Assembly (NCBI GenBank): GCA_038233775.1
Contig: JBBSVG010000032.1
Coordinates: 1-10,629 of the forward strand
Origin: Bacteroidota bacterium
Lineage (GTDB): Bacteria > Bacteroidota > JBBSVG01
Direction: 5' to 3'
Length of the DNA: 10,629 bases
A model generated the notes under the pieces. The model made no database searches and had not been told where the DNA came from. It saw nothing but the letters and a program-made list of their open reading frames with translations. The translations under genes and the position numbers were made by a program. Below are positions 3,733 through 10,629 of the stretch, in pieces (positions within the stretch are counted from its first letter, which is position 1; each line of letters starts with the position of its first letter).

Positions 3733-4526
3733 CGGTCGATGGTCGTCAAAAAGATCTCGCCTGTGCGGGCGCGGAGCCGAATCCGACCAGCGCCGCCGTT
3801 GATCGTCCCGTTGAGCACGCCGTCGCTGCGGACGGCGTTGAGAAAAACGAACCCCTGCGTCTTGATTGACCCCTTGTCGGCCAGCGCGTCGATCTGGGCT
3901 GAGATGGTCGGCGGCATGTGGACGGTGATGTTGCCGCTCAACGCCTCGATCACGATCTGGCCGCCGTCCGGCGGGGCGATCTGCACGTCGGCGCCGCCGT
4001 ATTCGACCCGAATATCGCACGAACCGCTCTGTCCGACGACCTGCACGCCCCGGCTGCTGCGGATCTTCAGGTCGCCGGTCAGGTACGAGACGATAGTCGA
4101 ATCGGTCGCCCCGGCGATGCGAAGCGGCGTGTCGTAGGGCAGCTCGACAAAGGCGGTGACACCGGCCGGACCGCGAAACGAGAGCGGCGTCGAGATCGCA
4201 ACCCGCAGGCTGTCGCCGGCCGATTGGGCGTTGCGGATCGTCATCTGCGACAGCGGCACGTCGGCCAGCGAGCGCTCGCTGACCCGGACGAACTTATCGA
4301 GTCGCCAGTTCATCTCCCCGGCCGCGATCCCGGCGCCCGTCACGATGAACCCGCCAATCGGGTTCGTCAGCACGACCGGGGCCGGGATGAACGAGGTCCG
4401 GCCGCTCGACTGGGCGCTTACGAAGACGCTGCTGACCGGTCCAACGCCCAGATCATCGACCTCGCGGCGACAGCCCGAGACCACCGCCATCAGCCCGAGG
4501 GCGAGCGCCCACCGCTGCTTGTTCAT
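3729..4526 (-). CDS. Lipoprotein, beta-strand-rich (possibly DUF4097-like putative adhesin fold)
   Basis: Signal peptide with lipobox (MNKQRWALALGLMAVVSGC, Cys20). AAGGAG SD 7 nt upstream of the ATG. The start overlaps the guanine-deaminase stop as ATGA. The mature protein has alternating hydrophobic/polar beta-strand patterns and Gly-rich turns (GDLKIRSSRGVQVVGQSGSCDIRVEYGGADVQIAPPDGGQIVIEALSGNITVHMPP). This is reminiscent of DUF4097-type all-beta repeat proteins, but that domain call is tentative. Its stop overlaps the convergent TPR gene stop (CTAA). Confidence 0.7.
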   Translation of the reverse strand: MNKQRWALALGLMAVVSGCRREVDDLGVGPVSSVFVSAQSSGRTSFIPAPVVLTNPIGGFIVTGAGIAAGEMNWRLDKFVRVSERSLADVPLSQMTIRNAQSAGDSLRVAISTPLSFRGPAGVTAFVELPYDTPLRIAGATDSTIVSYLTGDLKIRSSRGVQVVGQSGSCDIRVEYGGADVQIAPPDGGQIVIEALSGNITVHMPPTISAQIDALADKGSIKTQGFVFLNAVRSDGVLNGTINGGAGRIRLRARTGEIFLTTIDR

Positions 4527-5104
4527 CGCTGCTCCTTGCCGTTGTAAATCACGCCCGCTCCGGCCGCGTATTGTTCGAGCACCGCCGCCGCCTCGGCGCG
4601 CATCACCCCGCGCACGATCTCGATTCCGCGTTCGGCCAAGTACGCATACGATTCGGGAAAAACCGGTCCCTCGTCGAAATCGAGCCGCATCGCGTCATCT
4701 CGGGTCGCGGCGGTGACCAGCCGACCCACGCCGCTCCAGAGCGTCGCCCCCAAACACATCGCGCACGGCTCGCACGACGTAAACAACTCGAACGGTCCGC
4801 CCGGCACGACGCTCAAACTGTACGATCCGACCCGCGCCCCGGCCATCATAAACGCGACCATTTCGCCATGCAGCGTGCAGTTGTTCCCGGCGACGACAAG
4901 GTTGATCCCGACCGACACCAGCCGACCGGTCGGTTGCTCGAACACCGCCGCGCCGAACGGTCCGCCGGTTCCGTGCGCGACGTTCAATCGGCTCAGTTCG
5001 ACCGCAAGCGCCATTTTGGCGCTGTCGTCGGGATAAACCGCGTTCCAATCAACCGACCGGGCGACCCAATCGGGATACTGCAGATGCACTTCGGGTAGCG
5101 TCAC
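4523..5104 (-). CDS. guaD: Guanine deaminase, CDA-fold (CMP/dCMP-type zinc deaminase family; B. subtilis GuaD-like)
   Basis: Zinc-binding H(A/G)E motif (CTLHGEMVAF) and PCxxC motif (TSCEPCAMCLGATLW), plus GGPFGAAV near the N-terminus. All align closely with B. subtilis GuaD (GGPFGAVIV, HAE, TSCEPCPMCLGAIYW) rather than TadA. The C-terminal helix extension is as in GuaD. GTG at 5104 lies 16 nt after the tsaC stop and has no clear SD. An alternative start is the ATG at about 5014 (MALAVELSRLNVAHGTGGPFG), which fits the GuaD N-terminus length. The context is purine catabolism. Confidence 0.8.
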   Translation of the reverse strand: MTLPEVHLQYPDWVARSVDWNAVYPDDSAKMALAVELSRLNVAHGTGGPFGAAVFEQPTGRLVSVGINLVVAGNNCTLHGEMVAFMMAGARVGSYSLSVVPGGPFELFTSCEPCAMCLGATLWSGVGRLVTAATRDDAMRLDFDEGPVFPESYAYLAERGIEIVRGVMRAEAAAVLEQYAAGAGVIYNGKEQR

Positions 5105-5120
5105 AGCTTTGGGAACAAAG

Positions 5121-6110
5121 TTACTTGGCGGCGCGGGTCAGCCGGTCCATCAGGGCGAGGCCGAGGCCGACGGGCGGGACGTTCTGGCAATAGATCAGCG
5201 CCAGCCCGGCGGCGTCGGAGCGGCGAAAGAAGTCGAACACCGAGCGGGCGTACATCTCGACATCGTCGCAGATGACCAGACGACCGAACTGCGAGCCCGG
5301 ATCGGGCGCGTCGAGGCCGATATACGCCGTCGAGACATCGTCCAGCGCCGCCGATGGGTGGTCGATCAGCACGACACGGGCGCGGGGCGCGTAGTGGCGG
5401 TACTTCGTGCCCGGCGAGCGCGGCGGCGCAGGCGGTTCGACTTCCGAGGTGCCGTCGGCGGCTGATTGGGCGGCGAGCACTTCTGGCGAGAGGACCGTCG
5501 CGGGCAGGATCGTCTGCAACTGTTCGAGCGTGATCGCGCCCGAGCGTAGCACCATCGGGATCGGTCCGGTCACGTCGATGACCGTCGATTCAAGCCCGTG
5601 CTCGGTCGGTTCGCCCTGCAAAATACATGGGATGCGGCCGTCGAGATCGGCCTGAACGGCCTCCCACGTCGTCGGGCTCGGTCGGCCCGAGCGGTTGGCG
5701 CTCGGCGCGGCCAGCGGTCGGCCGCACGCGGCCAGCAGCGCCTGGGCGACCGGGTGGCGCGGGATGCGGACGCCGATGGTGTCAAGTCCGCCCGAGGCGA
5801 TGAGCGGCACGTCGGGGTGTTTGGGGACGACGACCGTCAGCGGACCGGGCGCGAACGCCGCCAGCAGCGCCACAGCCGACAGCGGCATACTCCGGGCGAC
5901 GAGCGGCAGTTGATCGACGCTCGACAGATGGGCGATCAACGGGTTGTCGGCCGGTCGGTCTTTGGCGGCAAAAATGGCCGCGACTGCGTCGGCGTTGAAC
6001 AGATCGGCGCCCAATCCGTACACCGTTTCGGTCGGGAACGCGACGACCTCGCCCCGGCGGATGAAATCGGCGGCCAGTTCGGGGTCAGTCGTCAGCAGCG
6101 TCTTAGGCAT
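5121..6110 (-). CDS. tsaC: L-threonylcarbamoyladenylate synthase, Sua5/YwlC type (YrdC domain plus C-terminal Sua5 domain)
   Basis: The YrdC signature sits near the N-terminus (EVVAFPTETVYGLGAD; later APSAN). The C-terminal Sua5 domain carries the SPGTKYRHYAP motif. Track ORF 5121..6227 begins at an upstream TTG. The family N-terminus is about 20 aa before ETVYGLG, which indicates the ATG at about 6110 (MPKTLLTTDPELAADFIRRGEVV). That ATG overlaps the xdhC stop by 8 nt (ATGCCTAA). Confidence 0.85.
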   Translation of the reverse strand: MPKTLLTTDPELAADFIRRGEVVAFPTETVYGLGADLFNADAVAAIFAAKDRPADNPLIAHLSSVDQLPLVARSMPLSAVALLAAFAPGPLTVVVPKHPDVPLIASGGLDTIGVRIPRHPVAQALLAACGRPLAAPSANRSGRPSPTTWEAVQADLDGRIPCILQGEPTEHGLESTVIDVTGPIPMVLRSGAITLEQLQTILPATVLSPEVLAAQSAADGTSEVEPPAPPRSPGTKYRHYAPRARVVLIDHPSAALDDVSTAYIGLDAPDPGSQFGRLVICDDVEMYARSVFDFFRRSDAAGLALIYCQNVPPVGLGLALMDRLTRAAK

Positions 6111-6882
6111 GAGGGTCGGGTCGGTCACGGAGTTGCAGCAGTTGGGCGGCGATGCTGACGGCAATCTCGGCCGGCGCGTTGCCGCCCAGATCAAGGCCCA
6201 TCGGACAGGTGAAATGGCCGGGTCCAAGCCCGACCGCGTCGAGTTCTTTCCGCAGCCGAGCCGCTTTCGCCCGAGACCCGATCACGCCGACGTAGGGAAA
6301 CGGGCGGTTTTGTTCGGTCAAGCGCCGCAAGATCGGCAGATCGGTCCCGTGGCCCATCGTCATCAGGAGGACGAAGGCGCGGTCCGGCAACCCGTCGAGC
6401 GCGGCGGGCAGATCGGCCGTCAGCGTGGCCGTCAGCCGGTCGGCGGTGGGCAGCTTCGCCAGCCACTCGGGACGCGAATCGAACAGCAGCACCCGGCACG
6501 GCAGCGTCGCAAGCAGCCGGACGAGCGCTTGGGCGACATGGCCCGCGCCGAAGATCGCCACGGTCCACTCGGCCGCGCCGGAGCGCTCAAAATACAGCCG
6601 AACCGTCCCGCCGCAGGTCATCCCGATGTCGCGGCCGAGGCTCCACGAGACGAACCGAGTCCGCTCGCCGCCGTCGGTTTGCAGCATCGCAGCGGCTTCG
6701 TCCAGCGCCCGGCGTTCGAGCTTGCCGCCGCCGACGGTGCCCCGGTCGAGTCCCGCCGAGGTCACGAGCATCCGCGAGCCTACGGCCACCGGGACGCTGC
6801 CGGTTGCATCGACAACCGTCACGGCGACGCACGGCTCGCCCGACTGAACCCGCTCCGCCCATCGCGCCAGCACCTCGTCCAT
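6103..6882 (-). CDS. xdhC: XdhC/CoxI-family molybdenum-cofactor insertion chaperone (xanthine dehydrogenase accessory protein)
   Basis: N-terminal XdhC/CoxI domain (CVAVTVVDATGSVPVAVGSRMLV...GTVGGGKLE) and C-terminal Rossmann-like XdhC domain (VAIFGAGHVAQALVRLLATLPCRVLLFDSRPEW; PYVGVIGSRAKAARLRKEL). The start is re-set from the track's TTG at 6990 to the ATG at 6882 (MDEVLARWAERV). It has a strong GGAGGA SD 6 nt upstream and leaves a 41-nt gap after allB instead of a 67-nt overlap. Confidence 0.85.
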   Translation of the reverse strand: MDEVLARWAERVQSGEPCVAVTVVDATGSVPVAVGSRMLVTSAGLDRGTVGGGKLERRALDEAAAMLQTDGGERTRFVSWSLGRDIGMTCGGTVRLYFERSGAAEWTVAIFGAGHVAQALVRLLATLPCRVLLFDSRPEWLAKLPTADRLTATLTADLPAALDGLPDRAFVLLMTMGHGTDLPILRRLTEQNRPFPYVGVIGSRAKAARLRKELDAVGLGPGHFTCPMGLDLGGNAPAEIAVSIAAQLLQLRDRPDPHA

Positions 6883-6923
6883 CGGCTCGCCTCCTATGGG
6901 AAGATACGACCCGAACGGTGCGT

Positions 6924-8273
6924 TCAGCCCGCCGCCGGTCCGGCGATGAACCGGCCGAACGGCTCGCCAACCGGGTTTCCGCCCGACCAAATCGTCCGGC
7001 CGCCGAGGATTGTGCGGACGACGCGACCGCGCAGCTTCCGACCGAGATACGGGCTTTGCCGATGCCGGTGGCGCAGGTCATCGACCGTCAGCGTGGACTC
7101 GGCCGACAGATCGACGAGTGCCAGATCGGCGTCGAACCCCGGCGCAAGATGGCCCTTTCGCGGCAACCAGAAGCGTCGCGCGGCGGCGCCAGCGAGCAGA
7201 TCGGTCAGTTTTTCGAGCGGCAAGTCGCGCCGGGCGACGCCTTCGGTCAGCATCAGCGAGAGCGTTTGGCCGATGCTCGATATGCCGCCCCAAACGGCAA
7301 AAAAGTCGGCCGAGGTTTTTAGCTCCGGCGGACTCGGCGAGTGGTCGCTGGCGACCCAATCGACCTCGCCCGCGAGCAGCCGCGTCCACAGTTCGGCCTG
7401 CGTCGTCCGGTCCCGGATCGGCGGGGCGCACTTGGCGACGGCGCCGAGTTCCGCCACGTTGTCGTCGGTCAAGACGAGATAATGCGGACAGGTTTCGGCG
7501 GTCACATCGACGCCGCGCGCTTTCGCCGCCGCGACTCGGGCGATCCCGGCGCCGGTGCTGACGTGGACGATGTGCAGCGCGCAGCCGGTCGCCTGGGCAA
7601 ACGTGATGACCCGGTCGATGGCCTCCAACTCGGCGACGACCGGGCGCGAGCCGAGGTAATCGCGGACGCCGGTCCGGCCAGCGGCGATGGCGCGGCGGGC
7701 GAGTTCGGCCGTCAGACCATCGTGCTCGGCGTGGACGGCGACCGGCAGGCCGAGCGCGGCGGCGCGGATCATCCCGTCGTAGAGCGTGACGTCGTCGGCC
7801 GCCGAGAAATCGGCCATCCCGCTGTTCGACAAAAACGCCTTGAATCCGATTGCCCCAGCGGCGGCCAACTCGTCCAGCCGGTCCAGATTCCCCGGCACGA
7901 GTCCGCCCCAGAGCGCGAAATCGACCCGACTCGACCGCTCCCCCGCTGCCCGTTTGGCTGCAAACGCGGCGGCATCGACGGTCGGCGGCGTCGAGTTGAG
8001 CGGCATGTCGATCAGCGTCGTCCCGCCGCCCGAGGCAAAGGCGAGCGAGCCGGTGGCGAACCCTTCCCACTCGGTCCGACCCGGCTCGTTCAGGTGAACG
8101 TGCGGGTCGATCATCCCCGGCAGGACGTGCAATCCGGCTGCATCAACCGTCTCGCGGCCGTCCGCCAACCCCGGCTCCAGCGCGACGATCCGGCCGTCGT
8201 CCACGGCAATGTCCAGCGACTGCACGCCGTCTGGCAGCACGACCGCGCCGCCACGAATCACGAGATCGTGCAT
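6924..8273 (-). CDS. allB: Allantoinase (cyclic amidohydrolase, EC 3.5.2.5)
   Basis: Full-length match to the AllB pattern. It has the metal-binding HxH (MIDPHVHLNEPGRTEWEGFATGS), the carbamylated-Lys motif (IGFKAF), VHAEH, HIVHVST, ETCPHYL, AKCAPPIRD, ASDHSPSPPELK and HRHRQSPYLGR. Each is near-identical to the corresponding E. coli AllB segments. ATG at 8273 directly abuts the hiuH stop (TAGATG). Confidence 0.9.
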   Translation of the reverse strand: MHDLVIRGGAVVLPDGVQSLDIAVDDGRIVALEPGLADGRETVDAAGLHVLPGMIDPHVHLNEPGRTEWEGFATGSLAFASGGGTTLIDMPLNSTPPTVDAAAFAAKRAAGERSSRVDFALWGGLVPGNLDRLDELAAAGAIGFKAFLSNSGMADFSAADDVTLYDGMIRAAALGLPVAVHAEHDGLTAELARRAIAAGRTGVRDYLGSRPVVAELEAIDRVITFAQATGCALHIVHVSTGAGIARVAAAKARGVDVTAETCPHYLVLTDDNVAELGAVAKCAPPIRDRTTQAELWTRLLAGEVDWVASDHSPSPPELKTSADFFAVWGGISSIGQTLSLMLTEGVARRDLPLEKLTDLLAGAAARRFWLPRKGHLAPGFDADLALVDLSAESTLTVDDLRHRHRQSPYLGRKLRGRVVRTILGGRTIWSGGNPVGEPFGRFIAGPAAG

Positions 8274-8642
8274 CTAACTGCCCCGGTAGGTCGAGTAGGC
8301 GAACGGCGAGACGAGCAGCGGGACGTGGTAATGCGCCGCCGGATCGGCCAAGCCGACCCGAATCGGGACGCGATCCAAGAACGGCATCGTCGGCGCGGCG
8401 AGGCCGAGATCGAGCTGATCGGCTGGCGGCGCGAAGTAATCGCCGACGTGGAACGTCAGTTCATACACGCCGGGCGCCGCATCGGCCGAGAGCAACGGCC
8501 GGTCGAGTCGCCCGTCGGCGTTGGTCCGCGCCTCGGCCACCGGCACCCGGCGCTCGTCGCCCTCGATCCGGTGCAGCTCAACGCGCACCCCGGCCGCCGG
8601 TCGCCCGCGAGCCGTGTCCAACACATGGGTGGTTAGAGACAT
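8274..8642 (-). CDS. hiuH: 5-hydroxyisourate hydrolase (transthyretin-like HIUase)
   Basis: About 120-aa transthyretin-fold protein ending in the diagnostic YRGS tetrapeptide ([16 protein letters not shown]). This distinguishes HIU hydrolases from transthyretins. [18 protein letters not shown] at the N-terminus is typical of the family. It sits between uricase and allantoinase. Confidence 0.9.
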
Positions 8643-8728
8643 ATCAGGAAGCGATGAGTGATGAATGAGGAGTGATGAATGGACAACGCCGCAGCACTCA
8701 GGGGTGCTCGGTCATCATTCCGCGTTCA
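8643..8728 (-). promoter_or_regulatory. Structured AT-richer intergenic element between uox and hiuH (candidate operator, internal promoter or attenuator)
   Basis: This is the only gap over 41 nt in the nine-gene array. On the + strand it reads: 2 x GAGTGATGAATG (8656-8667, 8670-8681, period 14), a small hairpin GCAGCAC-TCAGGGG-GTGCT (about 8691-8709), then 2 x TCATCATTCCGC (8712-8723, 8726-8737, period 14). The last copy overlaps the uricase stop and last codons, followed by a third ATTCCGC. There is no canonical SD for hiuH. The function is inferred only from position and architecture. Confidence 0.35.
8656..8683. repeat. Tandem direct repeat, 2 x 14 bp (GAGTGATGAATG + AG)
   Basis: Read directly: gagtgatgaatgag / gagtgatgaatgga. 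Confidence 0.8.
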
Positions 8729-8745
8729 TCATTCCGCATTCCGCC
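8712..8745. repeat. Tandem direct repeat, 2 x 14 bp (TCATCATTCCGC + GT/AT) plus third ATTCCGC
   Basis: Read directly: tcatcattccgcgt / tcatcattccgcat / tccgcc. The second copy spans the uricase stop codon. Confidence 0.8.
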
Positions 8746-9589
8746 CAACCGTCGCGGTGATCATGCCGTAGGGTTCGCTGGTGGCGACGAAGACGGCGTT
8801 CGGGTTGTCGAGCGAGAACGGGCTCAGATCGACGAGCAGCCGGTGCTGGTTGGGCAGCGTCATCGTGATCTCGGCGACCTCGGCGCAGGCGTCGAGCGTG
8901 GCTTGGGCCATGACGAGCAGCGTTTGCTGGACGGCGAGGCTGTCGTGTCCGGCGAAGGCGGTCAGCATCGCCCGGCGGATCGCGTCGTGGGCGGCGGTCG
9001 GGTCGGCCGGAACGGCGGTGTAGCGCCAGACGGCCGTGACGCTCGTCGCCATGATCCGGTCGGTCGTCTCTTTGAGCGACGTGTAGCGGTCGCGCTGAAA
9101 CCCGGTGAAGCCGGAGCGGGCCGTCTTCAGCACGACCAGATCGTCCAATCCACCGTGAACCGTAACCGTCCCGTCGCGGTCGGCCCGAACCTGGGCGGTG
9201 CGACGCTCGGCGCCGGTTGAGACAAACGCGTGCGGGTGCGGTGCCCCGGATTCGTCGCTCAACCGCGCCCAGCCGGCCTGCCGAATCGACACCGTTGCGG
9301 CCGTCACAGCATCGGTCGAGTCGAGAAAATGCCGGGCAACCGTTTGCGCGAACGCCTCGACATCGACGATCACGTGCTGCCGGGCGAGGGCGTACACGGT
9401 GTTCTTCATCGTGTCCGTCGCGACGATTCGGCTGTTGTCGCCGTGGGTGTATGAGCGACCGAAATCGCCTTCAAGTTCAATATCGACGCTCAGTTCGGCC
9501 AGATCGTGCCGACCATCGTCGTGCCGGTGGACGGTCGTCAGCCGAACGGCGGACTTGCCGTAGGTGTGGTGCAGCAGGGTCGCGGTCAT
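8729..9589 (-). CDS. uox: Urate oxidase (cofactor-independent uricase)
   Basis: Strong family motifs: HHTYGKSAVRL at the N-terminus, GDFGRSYTHGDNSRIVATDTMKNTVYALAR, VVLKTARSGFTGFQRDRYTSLKETTDRIMATSVTAVWRY, SLAVQQT and TMTLPNQHRLLVDLSPF...NPNAVFVATSEPYGMITATVGR. The match is collinear with the Arthrobacter and Bacillus uricases. Track ORF 8729..9763 carries a 58-codon Arg/His-rich N-terminal extension that overlaps the upstream gene. The ATG at 9589 (MTATLLHHTYGK) gives a typical 286-aa uricase and an ATGA overlap with the upstream gene's stop. Confidence 0.85.
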   Translation of the reverse strand: MTATLLHHTYGKSAVRLTTVHRHDDGRHDLAELSVDIELEGDFGRSYTHGDNSRIVATDTMKNTVYALARQHVIVDVEAFAQTVARHFLDSTDAVTAATVSIRQAGWARLSDESGAPHPHAFVSTGAERRTAQVRADRDGTVTVHGGLDDLVVLKTARSGFTGFQRDRYTSLKETTDRIMATSVTAVWRYTAVPADPTAAHDAIRRAMLTAFAGHDSLAVQQTLLVMAQATLDACAEVAEITMTLPNQHRLLVDLSPFSLDNPNAVFVATSEPYGMITATVGRNAE

Positions 9590-10239
9590 GTCGGTTCGGG
9601 GTCGGTGAGCGTCGGGGCGAAGCGGGCGAGGGCGGCGGTGAGCGTGGCCCGTTGATCGGCGGTGTGGGCCATCCGGTCGAGATCGACCCGGTGCATCGCG
9701 CCGCCTGTGGTTTCGGCGGTGAACACGTCGCCGTCGAATCCCGCCCGGCGGACATCGCGCCACGGCAGCACAACCCGGCGGAGCAGGTTGAACCGGATCG
9801 TCAGTTCGTCGGGGTCGAGCCGGATGTAGCGCGGACCACGCGGCCGATACGGTTTGAGCTTCGACTCGAACAGGGCAATCGAGAGGAACACCAACCCGAG
9901 GAACACAAACGTCAGCGGCAACGCGCGCTTGCCCAGCTCGGCCAACTCGGCGGCGTGGGCGAACTCGGCCAGCGCGGCGGCCAGATCGACGAACCCGACC
10001 CGTCGCCCATGAATCAAATGCGGCCGTTTCAGCTCGATGACGACGACGACCGCAAGCCCGATCCCAGCCAACAGGACGAACCCGGTCGCGACCGAGACAT
10101 GACCGGCGCCGATCTGATCGACGGCGCCCATGATCAGCGTCAGCCCGGCGACCAGATGGCGAAAGGCGTTGGCCCGCTCGATCCGCTTCGGGACGAGCCG
10201 AACGGTCAGGCCGTCGGCGGGAATCGGGTCAGCGTGCAT
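9586..10239 (-). CDS. Uncharacterised 3-TM membrane protein with cytoplasmic PH-like (bPH/DUF304-like) C-terminal domain
   Basis: 217 aa with three hydrophobic helices (HLVAGLTLIMGAV, VSVATGFVLLAGIGLAVVVVI, LPLTFVFLGLVFLSIALF). A soluble tail of about 85 aa follows (YIRLDPDELTIRFNLLRRVVLPWRDVRRAGFDGDVFTAETTGG...). Its alternating beta-strand pattern resembles bacterial membrane-flanked PH domains. The ATG at 10239 overlaps the uraD stop by 11 nt, and the stop overlaps the uricase ATG (ATGA). The codon usage is coherent and there are no internal stops. It is real by context, but its function is unknown. Confidence 0.6.
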   Translation of the reverse strand: MHADPIPADGLTVRLVPKRIERANAFRHLVAGLTLIMGAVDQIGAGHVSVATGFVLLAGIGLAVVVVIELKRPHLIHGRRVGFVDLAAALAEFAHAAELAELGKRALPLTFVFLGLVFLSIALFESKLKPYRPRGPRYIRLDPDELTIRFNLLRRVVLPWRDVRRAGFDGDVFTAETTGGAMHRVDLDRMAHTADQRATLTAALARFAPTLTDPEPT

Positions 10240-10629
10240 CGGCGAGCAGGTCGGTCAGGCGGAACCGGGCGATCTTGCCGATCTCGCCGAGCGCGGTCGC
10301 GATTTCTTCCGCCCGATTGTGGCGCAGCCGGATCGGGAACGCGGTCAGGATCGACGCCTTCTTGTGCTCTCGGGCGCACAGGACGAACGGAAAGCCGAAC
10401 CGCTCGCGGTAGGCGCCGTTGAAGTGGTCGAAGGCAACGACCTCGTCGTCCGTCAGATCGCCCAGCCCGGCTGAGGCTTGCTCGCGGCTCGATTCGGCCG
10501 TCAGCGTCCCGGCCCGAGCGGCGCGGCCGACCAGATCGGGGTGCGCTTGGATCAGCCCGAGTTTTTCGTCGTCGGTCGCGGCCTCAACGGTCGCCATCAG
10601 CGCGTCGTGCAGCGCATCGACCGAGGCGA
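10229..10629 (-). CDS. uraD: OHCU decarboxylase (2-oxo-4-hydroxy-4-carboxy-5-ureidoimidazoline decarboxylase), 5' end beyond window
   Basis: The track starts at an internal Met (10597). The frame stays open to the window edge (ASVDALHDALMATVEAATDDEKLGLIQAHPDL...). The HP(D/R)L segment and FGFPFVLCAREH are the family hallmarks. The full protein is expected to be about 165 aa, so roughly 30-40 codons lie beyond position 10629. Confidence 0.8.
   Translation of the reverse strand, partial: ASVDALHDALMATVEAATDDEKLGLIQAHPDLVGRAARAGTLTAESSREQASAGLGDLTDDEVVAFDHFNGAYRERFGFPFVLCAREHKKASILTAFPIRLRHNRAEEIATALGEIGKIARFRLTDLLADAR

Follow-up and report, generated by a model that had tools for sequence, protein, structure and literature searches.

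Between the uricase (uox) and 5-hydroxyisourate hydrolase (hiuH) genes of a Bacteroidota contig (JBBSVG010000032.1, analysed over its entire 10,629 bp and referred to below as the window) lies an 86-nt spacer built of tandem heptanucleotides, and several described elements invite comparison with it. Repetitive extragenic palindromes (REPs) lying within operons, as between malE and malF, are co-transcribed and act as barriers to 3′-5′ decay, thereby setting differential expression. The RNase III sites of the phage T7 early region are long hairpins between co-transcribed cistrons; when cut, they leave a stem that stabilises the 3′ end of one product and open up the initiation region of the next. 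By uricase genes, the HucR operator (hucO) and the PucR boxes are palindromic DNA, situated in promoter regions next to the regulator gene and specific to their loci. Heptanucleotide repeats are said to have been described in cyanobacteria by Mazel in 1990 as short tandemly repeated repetitive (STRR) sequences. In Haemophilus influenzae a transcribed (ATCTTTC)n heptamer simple sequence repeat (SSR) in the 5′ untranslated region (5′-UTR) of hmw1A forms one arm of a long hairpin that is cleaved by RNase III, modulating expression, and both the hairpin and RNase III are required for repeat-number change (PMC12721329). Lastly, direct repeats of the heptamer TAACTGA are found in Beggiatoaceae, Cyanobacteria and Bacteroidetes, with a patchy spread across phyla and no known function (MacGregor 2015, PMC4679880).

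Here we report that the uox-hiuH spacer is a heptanucleotide-repeat palindrome, a TGA-bearing array followed by an inverted array, and that it belongs, as a single copy, to a large class of such hairpins across phyla. Both conclusions, and with them the identity of the element, are well supported; its mechanism is something that we infer. With moderate confidence, we propose that the palindrome is a co-transcribed intercistronic stem-loop, possibly processed by RNase III.

A heptamer palindrome at the uox-hiuH junction

The window has a GC content of 0.673 and carries a minus-strand array of nine genes, encoding OHCU decarboxylase, a membrane protein, uricase, HiuH, an allantoinase-like amidohydrolase, XdhC, TsaC/Sua5, a deaminase and a LiaG-like protein. 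Junctions along the array measure -11, -7, 86, 0, 38, -8, 16 and -4 nt, the uox-hiuH gap (8643-8728) being the sole outlier, and its GC content is 0.535. The initial annotation of this DNA, made from the letters alone, was right on both counts in calling the gap exceptional and AT-richer than its surroundings. An independent Logan assembly (L121; L and P numbers label the DNA loci and proteins compared) carries the identical element sequence. The junction is laid out as follows.

8729 to 9589, minus strand: uricase (urate oxidase) coding sequence, 286 aa; Pfam PF01014, 1.5e-53; identical to P0001
8726 to 8731, minus strand: tandem in-frame uricase stop codons TGA TGA, the first at 8729-8731 and the second at 8726-8728, both inside the right-hand repeat
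8710 to 8744, minus strand: 5′ arm, sense GCGGAAT GCGGAAT GATGAAC GCGGAAT GATGACC, five tandem heptamers; includes the 23-mer GAATGATGAACGCGGAATGATGA (8734 to 8712)
8681 to 8709, no strand assigned: palindrome centre, 29 nt, with its own short GC hairpin in predicted folds (AGCAC 8693-8697 / GTGCT 8704-8708, 5 bp, loop TCAGGG)
8653 to 8680, minus strand: 3′ arm, sense ATTCATC ACTCCTC ATTCATC ACTCATC, an inverted array of four heptamers
8643 to 8652, minus strand: 10-nt linker GCUUCCUGAU from the hairpin base to the hiuH ATG, with no Shine-Dalgarno (SD) sequence
8274 to 8642, minus strand: hiuH, 5-hydroxyisourate hydrolase of the transthyretin family; Pfam PF00576, 2.5e-35; ATG at 8640-8642; C-terminus ...YRGS

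The repeats had been read as two different 12-mers, each duplicated with a 14-bp period. The strings are indeed there, GAGTGATGAATG at 8656-8667 and 8670-8681 and TCATCATTCCGC at 8712-8723 and 8726-8737, as are the third ATTCCGC copy at 8738-8744 and the inner AGCAC/GTGCT hairpin. However, the 12-mers are not different: they are reverse complements of one another and define two 23-nt arms (8656-8678 / 8712-8734) that are 83% complementary. Moreover, the true period is 7, as given both by Tandem Repeats Finder (TRF; period 7, 4.1 copies) and by parsing into heptamers, and repeat-finding also recovers the arms. The apparent 14-nt period is an alternation of two heptamer variants. The argument that a 14-bp phasing implies a site for a dimer or tetramer fails because the real period is 7.

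The coding sequence of uricase runs into the array, with its last three codons (AAT GCG GAA) plus the stop falling within the heptamers, and the early observation that the right-hand repeats run through the stop codon is correct. TGA closes two of the three frames in the 5′ arm (first bases 8731/8728 and 8717/8714) and the third frame closes at 8700. The 3′ arm, which contains no G on the sense strand, reads GATGAGT GATGAAT GAGGAGT GATGAAT on the plus strand, with TGA in all three frames; either strand, on entering the element, thereby meets TGA in each of the three frames. The element spans ~92 nt as a whole. The mini open reading frame (ORF) MMTEHP* that had been pointed out does exist, as one consequence of TGA/ATG-rich heptamers closing three frames. 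Five of the seven matches to GGARTGATGAA in the window (allowing two mismatches) lie inside 88 nt, a clustering beyond chance. The palindrome centre (23 nt) had no exact match in the metagenome collection.

As first remarked, hiuH lacks an SD sequence, and we found no purine-rich stretch upstream of its start. No regulator domain or gene was found among the window ORFs by domain search, no sigma-70-like promoter was found on either strand in the element region, which speaks against the internal promoter once suggested here, and a scan of 8300-9100 for intrinsic terminators was empty. An exact look-up of the HiuH protein returned no identical record.

A polar class of hairpins in many lineages

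To place the element we drew on three scans. A scan of one genome per species with GARTGATGANNNNNGARTGATGA gave at least 120 loci, the matches being tandem heptamer arrays, and a scan of viral contigs with a generic pattern likewise gave at least 120 loci. The window's own arm, GAATGATGAMCGCGGAATGATGA, was found as an exact 23-mer on 109 metagenomic contigs, for which we estimate from the collection size a chance expectation of much less than one. Of the distinct arm-sharing copies with flanks, 72/81 pair with a downstream inverted heptamer arm, forming hairpins with a median length of 86.5 nt. The class as a whole spans roughly 50-140 nt, with a median stem of ~31 predicted base pairs, and the centres of the 109 arm-sharing copies all differ. 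The string GCGGAATGATGA is common to the window arm and L016, L020, L043, L053, L069, L080 and L091.

The arrangement is polar. Among the matches listed, 113 (TGATGAR)n arrays have full flanks, and an inverted partner lies within 150 nt downstream in 33 and upstream in 1; on viral contigs the corresponding ratio, again among the matches listed, is 12:0. Genomes and viral contigs together give the order (TGATGAR)n-loop-(YTCATCA)n by 45:1. The window element shows this polarity on both strands and shares the other features of the class, namely the arm units, the downstream inverted array, the length, the position at a gene 3′ end or intercistronic gap, the short distance to the next start (10 nt, against ~0-30 nt for the class) and a centre of its own. 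Period 7 also dominates arrays in general: in 0.83 Mb of the genome loci we counted 220 arrays of period 7, compared with 35 each of periods 5 and 6 and 3 each of periods 8 and 9. Many other, unrelated heptamers form arrays in the same genomes.

The metagenome-assembled genomes (MAGs) recovered by the genome scan are, among the matches listed, mostly labelled Acidobacteriota (Pyrinomonadaceae, Blastocatellia), Planctomycetota, Chloroflexota, Bacteroidota (Chitinophagaceae, Saprospiraceae), Cyanobacteria and Verrucomicrobiota; Nostoc and Anabaena loci are among the matches (L002, L017). Paired hairpins occur in MAGs labelled Acidobacteriota (especially Blastocatellia/Pyrinomonadaceae), Planctomycetota, Bacteroidota and a few Proteobacteria, as well as on viral contigs. 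Unpaired arrays of the same heptamers occur in Chloroflexota, Cyanobacteria and Verrucomicrobiota. A search of 18 class loci gave no Rfam match at gathering score.

Several copies have features of their own. The 14-nt unit GCGGAATGATGAAC, a doublet in the window, reaches arrays of at least 8 copies elsewhere (L296 1670-1776; L351; L254), one of which runs off the contig end. In L250, L291 and L318 the heptamer hairpin is nested in a larger inverted repeat, cccgaccgtgagggagggcg ... cgccctccctcacggtcggg. Intergenic mosaics of adjoining heptamer arrays, e.g. TGATGAA, GTGGCCG and GGGGAGA, are seen in L011, L018 (Planctomycetaceae MFD01231.bin.2.4), L077, L120, L028 and L108. Amongst viral contigs, L129, L136, L164, L167, L197, L181/L188 and L170/L176 carry two or three TGATGAR arrays or hairpins per contig, and L147 shares the 19-nt arm string TCATCATTCCGCGTTCATC with the window. 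A (TGATGAG)6 array lies on L001 (CAYVVX010000008.1, Planctomycetales), and a flotillin homologue, P0258 (69% identity to that of the window), may lie on the same contig. In Blastocatellia and Pyrinomonadaceae MAGs (L053, L080, L114, L096, L007 and L042) the inner stem TTAAAGAC ... GTCTTTAA is conserved between genomes, which hints at a propagating sub-family rather than independent slippage. We also considered the mirror placement of the CGCG variant in both arms, which is exact in 21/76 hairpins, and set it aside as uninformative, since a minimum free energy fold picks the register that pairs variants.

Placement between genes

Counts of genomic context are approximate, the gene calls being a crude comparison of third-position GC (GC3) between strands on high-GC contigs. 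On this footing, 21 members of the class lie at co-directional junctions, 10 at convergent and 2 at divergent ones. In co-directional members the upstream stop codon falls -41 to +17 nt from the 5′ base of the hairpin and the next start lies a median of 17 nt past the 3′ base; by comparison, in the window the stop is inside the 5′ arm and the start 10 nt past the 3′ arm. The flanking genes are unrelated to purine catabolism and encode, for example, an ABC permease/SIS protein, a CCG-domain protein (PF02754)/TPR protein, 6PGD/ROK kinase, AcrB, GT2 glycosyltransferase/asparagine synthase, and also sugar transport functions. Hairpins with the same arms lie in S10/spc ribosomal-protein operons, at rplX/rplE and rplB/rpsS and upstream of rplR and of rplV (L294 and L286, which are on one contig, JADMIO010921796.1, L355 and L287). 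Furthermore, the hairpin fills tRNA spacers in L335 (~800-885) and L332 (~50-130) (tRNA-Tyr / tRNA-Thr; upstream of tRNA-Asp). The copies internal to ribosomal-protein and tRNA operons thus fit co-transcription and argue against efficient termination.

One orthologous group comprises eight contigs (L265, L266, L267, L271, L273, L307, L325 and L336) that share an ORF resembling a zinc-finger protein and, after it, one resembling a heptosyltransferase, both identified by eye in translation. The 38-nt 3′ arm is invariant in all six contigs that reach it, while the centre and the neighbouring codons vary. The downstream GTG start directly adjoins this arm. A second, GC-rich hairpin lies just upstream, holding the stop codon of the upstream gene in its loop, and shows compensatory changes between orthologues (GGCGGGCGGG...CCCGCCGCGCC versus GGCGGGCAAGC...GCTTGCCGCGCC).

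History of the junction

The array starts at the last conserved codon of uricase, with the invariant Arg R283 (CGG) supplying the first triplet of the first heptamer. In a C-terminal alignment the uricase family has one residue after this Arg; here the sequence reads R-N-A-E-stop-stop, a 2-residue extension encoded by heptamers. The only syntenic relative with readable DNA, L122, has a uricase that is 59% identical and a uox-hiuH gap of 2 nt, the spacer being absent. No closer uricase relatives were found in 5.8 billion protein clusters, the next-best being about 58% identical. From this comparison the element would be an insertion or expansion at a formerly tight uox-hiuH junction. Such a junction, translationally coupled at the outset, may have been expanded when 7-nt units mispaired by strand slippage, with the stop codon as the point of nucleation, and the inverted array may have arisen through intrastrand template switching. 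A period of 7 would rotate TGA through the three frames, such that a nearby stop would be kept after any slippage.

Predicted folding and proposed function

Folding models predict a ~90-nt stem-loop in the uox-hiuH transcript, with a stem of 23 nt per arm plus extensions. The sense-strand fold of -37.8 kcal/mol is better than those of dinucleotide shuffles (z = -2.7), and no Rfam family was matched by the window element at gathering score. An RNA structure acting on hiuH-allB-xdhC had been put forward for this gap; the structure is upheld as a prediction, but it is an instance of a widespread element type and not specific to the locus.

Opening the hiuH initiation region (-18..+12) is predicted to cost 8.1 kcal/mol, less than for any other gene in the window (8.4-18.2), and a modelled 2-nt uox-hiuH junction gives 14.6 kcal/mol. 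With a ribosome on the uox stop the value is 5.1 kcal/mol, a small change. In these models the hairpin leaves the hiuH start accessible. We accordingly dropped start-codon sequestration, with translational coupling by unfolding, as an account of this copy. An attC-like reading was also rejected: GTTGGGC and CTCTAAC pair at the hairpin base (fold read by eye), but their order is not that of an attC site and they fall within coding sequence.

We propose that the element is transcribed within the uox-hiuH-allB mRNA, where it would fold into a long, nearly continuous stem-loop and act as a generic intercistronic RNA structure, being neither an efficient terminator nor a urate-specific operator. 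A ~25-30-bp stem is the type of substrate taken by the double-strand-specific RNase III, for which at least ~20 bp of near-continuous double-stranded RNA in a transcribed region would be expected, and stems of this predicted length suit that enzyme better than they suit a terminator. Cleavage would split the transcript, leaving a protective 3′ stem on the uox part and freeing an unstructured, SD-less hiuH leader. The outcome would be a set ratio of uox to hiuH-allB expression, rather than the sensing of urate.

The case for a selected function is the invariant 38-nt 3′ arm of the eight-contig orthologous group, together with a polarity and placement that are strikingly regular. Several observations weigh against our proposal. 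Co-transcription, folding in vivo and RNase III cleavage are each predictions. In the window the antisense (plus) strand folds much better than the sense strand, at -50.9 kcal/mol (z = -6.0 versus dinucleotide shuffles); of the four arm mismatches in this copy, three are G-U on the plus strand and A-C on the sense strand. This advantage of the plus strand is probably a chance excess of G-U over A-C, because the asymmetry between sense and antisense folding is not significant across the class. The same comparison counts against us in another way: in 33 co-directional members the transcribed strand folds better than its complement in 19 and worse in 14 (Wilcoxon p = 0.40), and there is therefore no signature of RNA-level selection. 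Moreover, the arms diverge or change in concert in the orthologous pairs L255/L352, L329/L346 and L282/L334, as expected for neutral simple-sequence dynamics. Finally, 42 kb from the nearest named relatives of the TsaC/Sua5 protein contained no heptamer array.

Alternative explanations

The foremost alternative is that the palindrome is neutral or selfish simple sequence, a by-product of heptamer slippage plus template-switch growth at a stop codon with no selected role in expression. It would be tolerated by virtue of folding on itself and retaining stops in each frame. We consider this possible, if doubtful, as a full account; a purely mutational origin is a strong rival and would also explain the polarity. 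The lack of a sense-strand folding bias across the class points this way, as do the four arm mismatches that weaken the sense-strand fold of the window copy, the drift or concerted homogenisation of arms between orthologues and the many unrelated heptamer arrays in the same genomes. Heptanucleotide SSRs are moreover given as the commonest long SSR class in prokaryotes and ascribed to polymerase slippage, in the account of Mrazek 2007 relayed by PMC4679880. Set against this are the strong 45:1 polarity among the matches listed and the precise placement of copies between stop and start codons, although nucleation at stop codons could account for both without function. The tolerance of copies in ribosomal-protein operons and the arms that stay unchanged in one orthologous group despite variation at synonymous sites are further points against neutrality.

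At the other extreme, the TGA-heptamer palindromes might constitute a functional intercistronic module used across phyla, a portable cassette for termination-reinitiation (shunt-like) or for processing, in which slippage of unit number would tune the ratio of cistrons even in ribosomal-protein operons. In such a cassette the ribosome would terminate in the 5′ arm, and the stem would bring the stop next to the SD-less start, and/or RNase III would cut. We think this broader proposal unlikely as a whole.

More doubtful still is a partial uncoupling of uox from hiuH-allB-xdhC by a factor-independent terminator or attenuator. The stable hairpin predicted directly after a stop codon would suit it, T-rich tails are found in several members, some on both sides (L085, L094, L080, L119, L030 and L091), and convergent junctions are over-represented and divergent ones rare. 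However, the window copy has no U-tract on either strand, its tail being CGCUUCCUGAU, and the terminator scan was empty, as reported above. Moreover, hiuH starts 10 nt past the stem, leaving no space for a promoter, members lie inside S10/spc ribosomal-protein operons and tRNA clusters, and stems of ~31 bp far exceed those of typical intrinsic terminators.

We judge it improbable that the element is a mobile palindrome, similar to a REP or a miniature inverted-repeat transposable element (MITE), that is spread by a transposase such as a REP-associated tyrosine transposase (RAYT/TnpA-REP). Copies are dispersed, intergenic and at 3′ ends, the inner stem of Blastocatellia-type copies recurs between genomes (L053, L080, L114, L096), and in L119 whole elements are duplicated, centre included. 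Yet the centre in the window is unmatched and those of the arm-sharing copies all differ; unit number varies from copy to copy, as for slippage and not for transposition. Reading by eye, we saw no target-site duplication in the window flanks and, by eye and with no pattern search, no GTAG/CGTC REP head or complement in 8643-8745 (heads as in PMC3733652).

The initial annotation favoured an operator for a urate-responsive factor of the MarR/HucR or PucR type, to which a GntR-type factor may be added, bound to what are now four GGARTGATGAA sites. The position within a purine-catabolism cluster and the presence of four similar 11-mers as two inverted pairs are what such an operator would show. 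Nevertheless, the reading is largely refuted by the distribution of the sequence and seems to us very improbable: the same arm is found at over 100 unrelated loci, spread over many lineages and several phyla as well as viral contigs. The window has no regulator gene and no promoter was found, the site lies between two genes of the array and not upstream of it, and the closest syntenic relative, L122, lacks the element. To our knowledge, the motif matches neither hucO nor the PucR boxes.

We can practically dismiss a riboswitch or other gene-specific cis-regulatory RNA, a small antisense RNA and functional mini-ORFs, for although the plus strand folds very well (z = -6.0), mini-ORFs such as MMTEHP* are present and there are sub-threshold C/D-box-like Rfam hits, those hits score at most 17.8 bits against gathering scores of 35-96 and are accounted for by RUGAUGA/CUGA strings, the hairpin is plainly built of repeats with no conserved loop, the mini-ORFs differ in every copy and no promoter was found on either strand. 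The individual Rfam hits (C/D-box, miRNA and THF; the best, sR14, scored 17.8 bits where 38 is the gathering score) were rejected as sub-threshold.

Neighbouring genes

The gene between those of OHCU decarboxylase and uricase (9586-10239, minus strand) codes for a predicted membrane protein of 217 aa with no Pfam or NCBIfam match. Its overlap with both neighbours, by 11 and 7 nt, makes co-translation with the uricolytic enzymes probable. TRF reports a 9/18-nt repeat at 9933-9979 inside this gene. The OHCU decarboxylase ORF (10229-10597, minus strand) is only 122 aa long and matches Pfam profile positions 44-154 of 155; either the protein lacks its N-terminus or the gene is broken close to the end of the contig.

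After allantoinase, the same tight array continues with XdhC, TsaC/Sua5 (the tRNA t6A enzyme) and a CDA-fold deaminase (4523-6990, minus strand). A housekeeping tRNA-modification gene within a purine-catabolism cluster is unusual. The Sua5 of a relative (L125) likewise has a CDA-fold deaminase gene ~3 kb off. By protein, the nearest relatives of TsaC/Sua5 are from Rhodothermales or Blastocatellia (~60%), those of uricase from Gemmatimonadota (55%) and those of the flotillin from Gemmataceae, Tepidisphaeraceae or other Planctomycetota (~70%).

Significance

At this locus the repeats say nothing on urate sensing and are not a basis for inferring a regulon. What they do have is a recognisable architecture, in the fixed order (TGA-heptamers)n, loop, (inverted heptamers)n, with frames closed both ways, which fills the gaps between stops and starts. 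Should effects on processing or reinitiation prove true, the class would represent a general post-transcriptional device of lineages that make poor use of SD sequences, and a source of heritable, slippage-driven tuning of operon stoichiometry. Should the repeats be neutral, they would form a systematic trap for gene callers, with ORFs extended through the stop-free YTCATCA arm, and also for motif-based regulon prediction.

Comparison with known systems

In comparison with hucO and the PucR boxes, the window element lies between cistrons, with no regulator gene close by, and is common to more than 100 unrelated loci. It differs from MITEs in having no conserved internal sequence and, as seen by eye, no flanking duplication. 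REPs and bacterial interspersed mosaic elements (e.g. PMC3733652) resemble the class in being palindromes scattered through intergenic DNA, at the 3′ ends of genes as well as inside operons. REPs are 20-40 bp long, with no internal repeats, a GTAG/CGTC head and a link to RAYTs, whereas the arms here are variable-number tandem heptamers. The phage T7 RNase III sites, in turn, are unique sequences that are not built of repeats; the heptamer class also occurs on viral contigs, and its own cleavage is a prediction.

The long SSRs (LSSRs) of Mrazek 2007, as relayed by PMC4679880, share with the class an excess of period 7 among intergenic tandem repeats, for which an origin by slippage was proposed. 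LSSR and STRR repeats are described as direct arrays, for which neither a defined inverted partner nor a polarity nor a set distance from stop and start codons is given. The TAACTGA repeat is the closest descriptive precedent: its units are 7 nt long and contain TGA, put stops in three frames in the forward direction, overlap upstream stop codons and lie only a few nt from SD-less starts, including in ribosomal-protein operons (PMC4679880). It differs in that 169 sets are direct and 1 is inverted, with the forward array abutting the start codon (PMC4679880), whereas the window class consists of inverted pairs forming hairpins, the reverse array abuts the start and the units are GARTGAT / GCGGAAT.

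The hmw1A hairpin is the best experimental precedent: it too is long and has an arm made of heptamer repeats, whose number can change by slippage. There, however, the other arm is non-repeat and G-rich, and the hairpin lies in a promoter-proximal 5′-UTR of a phase-variable adhesin gene in one species; the window element has heptamer arrays for both arms, TGA-bearing units, an intercistronic position and counterparts in many lineages. Searching the literature on the repeat strings and on heptamer palindromes turned up no description of the class, only direct heptamer repeats (TAACTGA, STRR and LSSR) and the species-specific hmw hairpin. Set beside these, the class is an under-described variant of heptanucleotide repeat elements, made up of paired, polar, stop-bearing palindromes.

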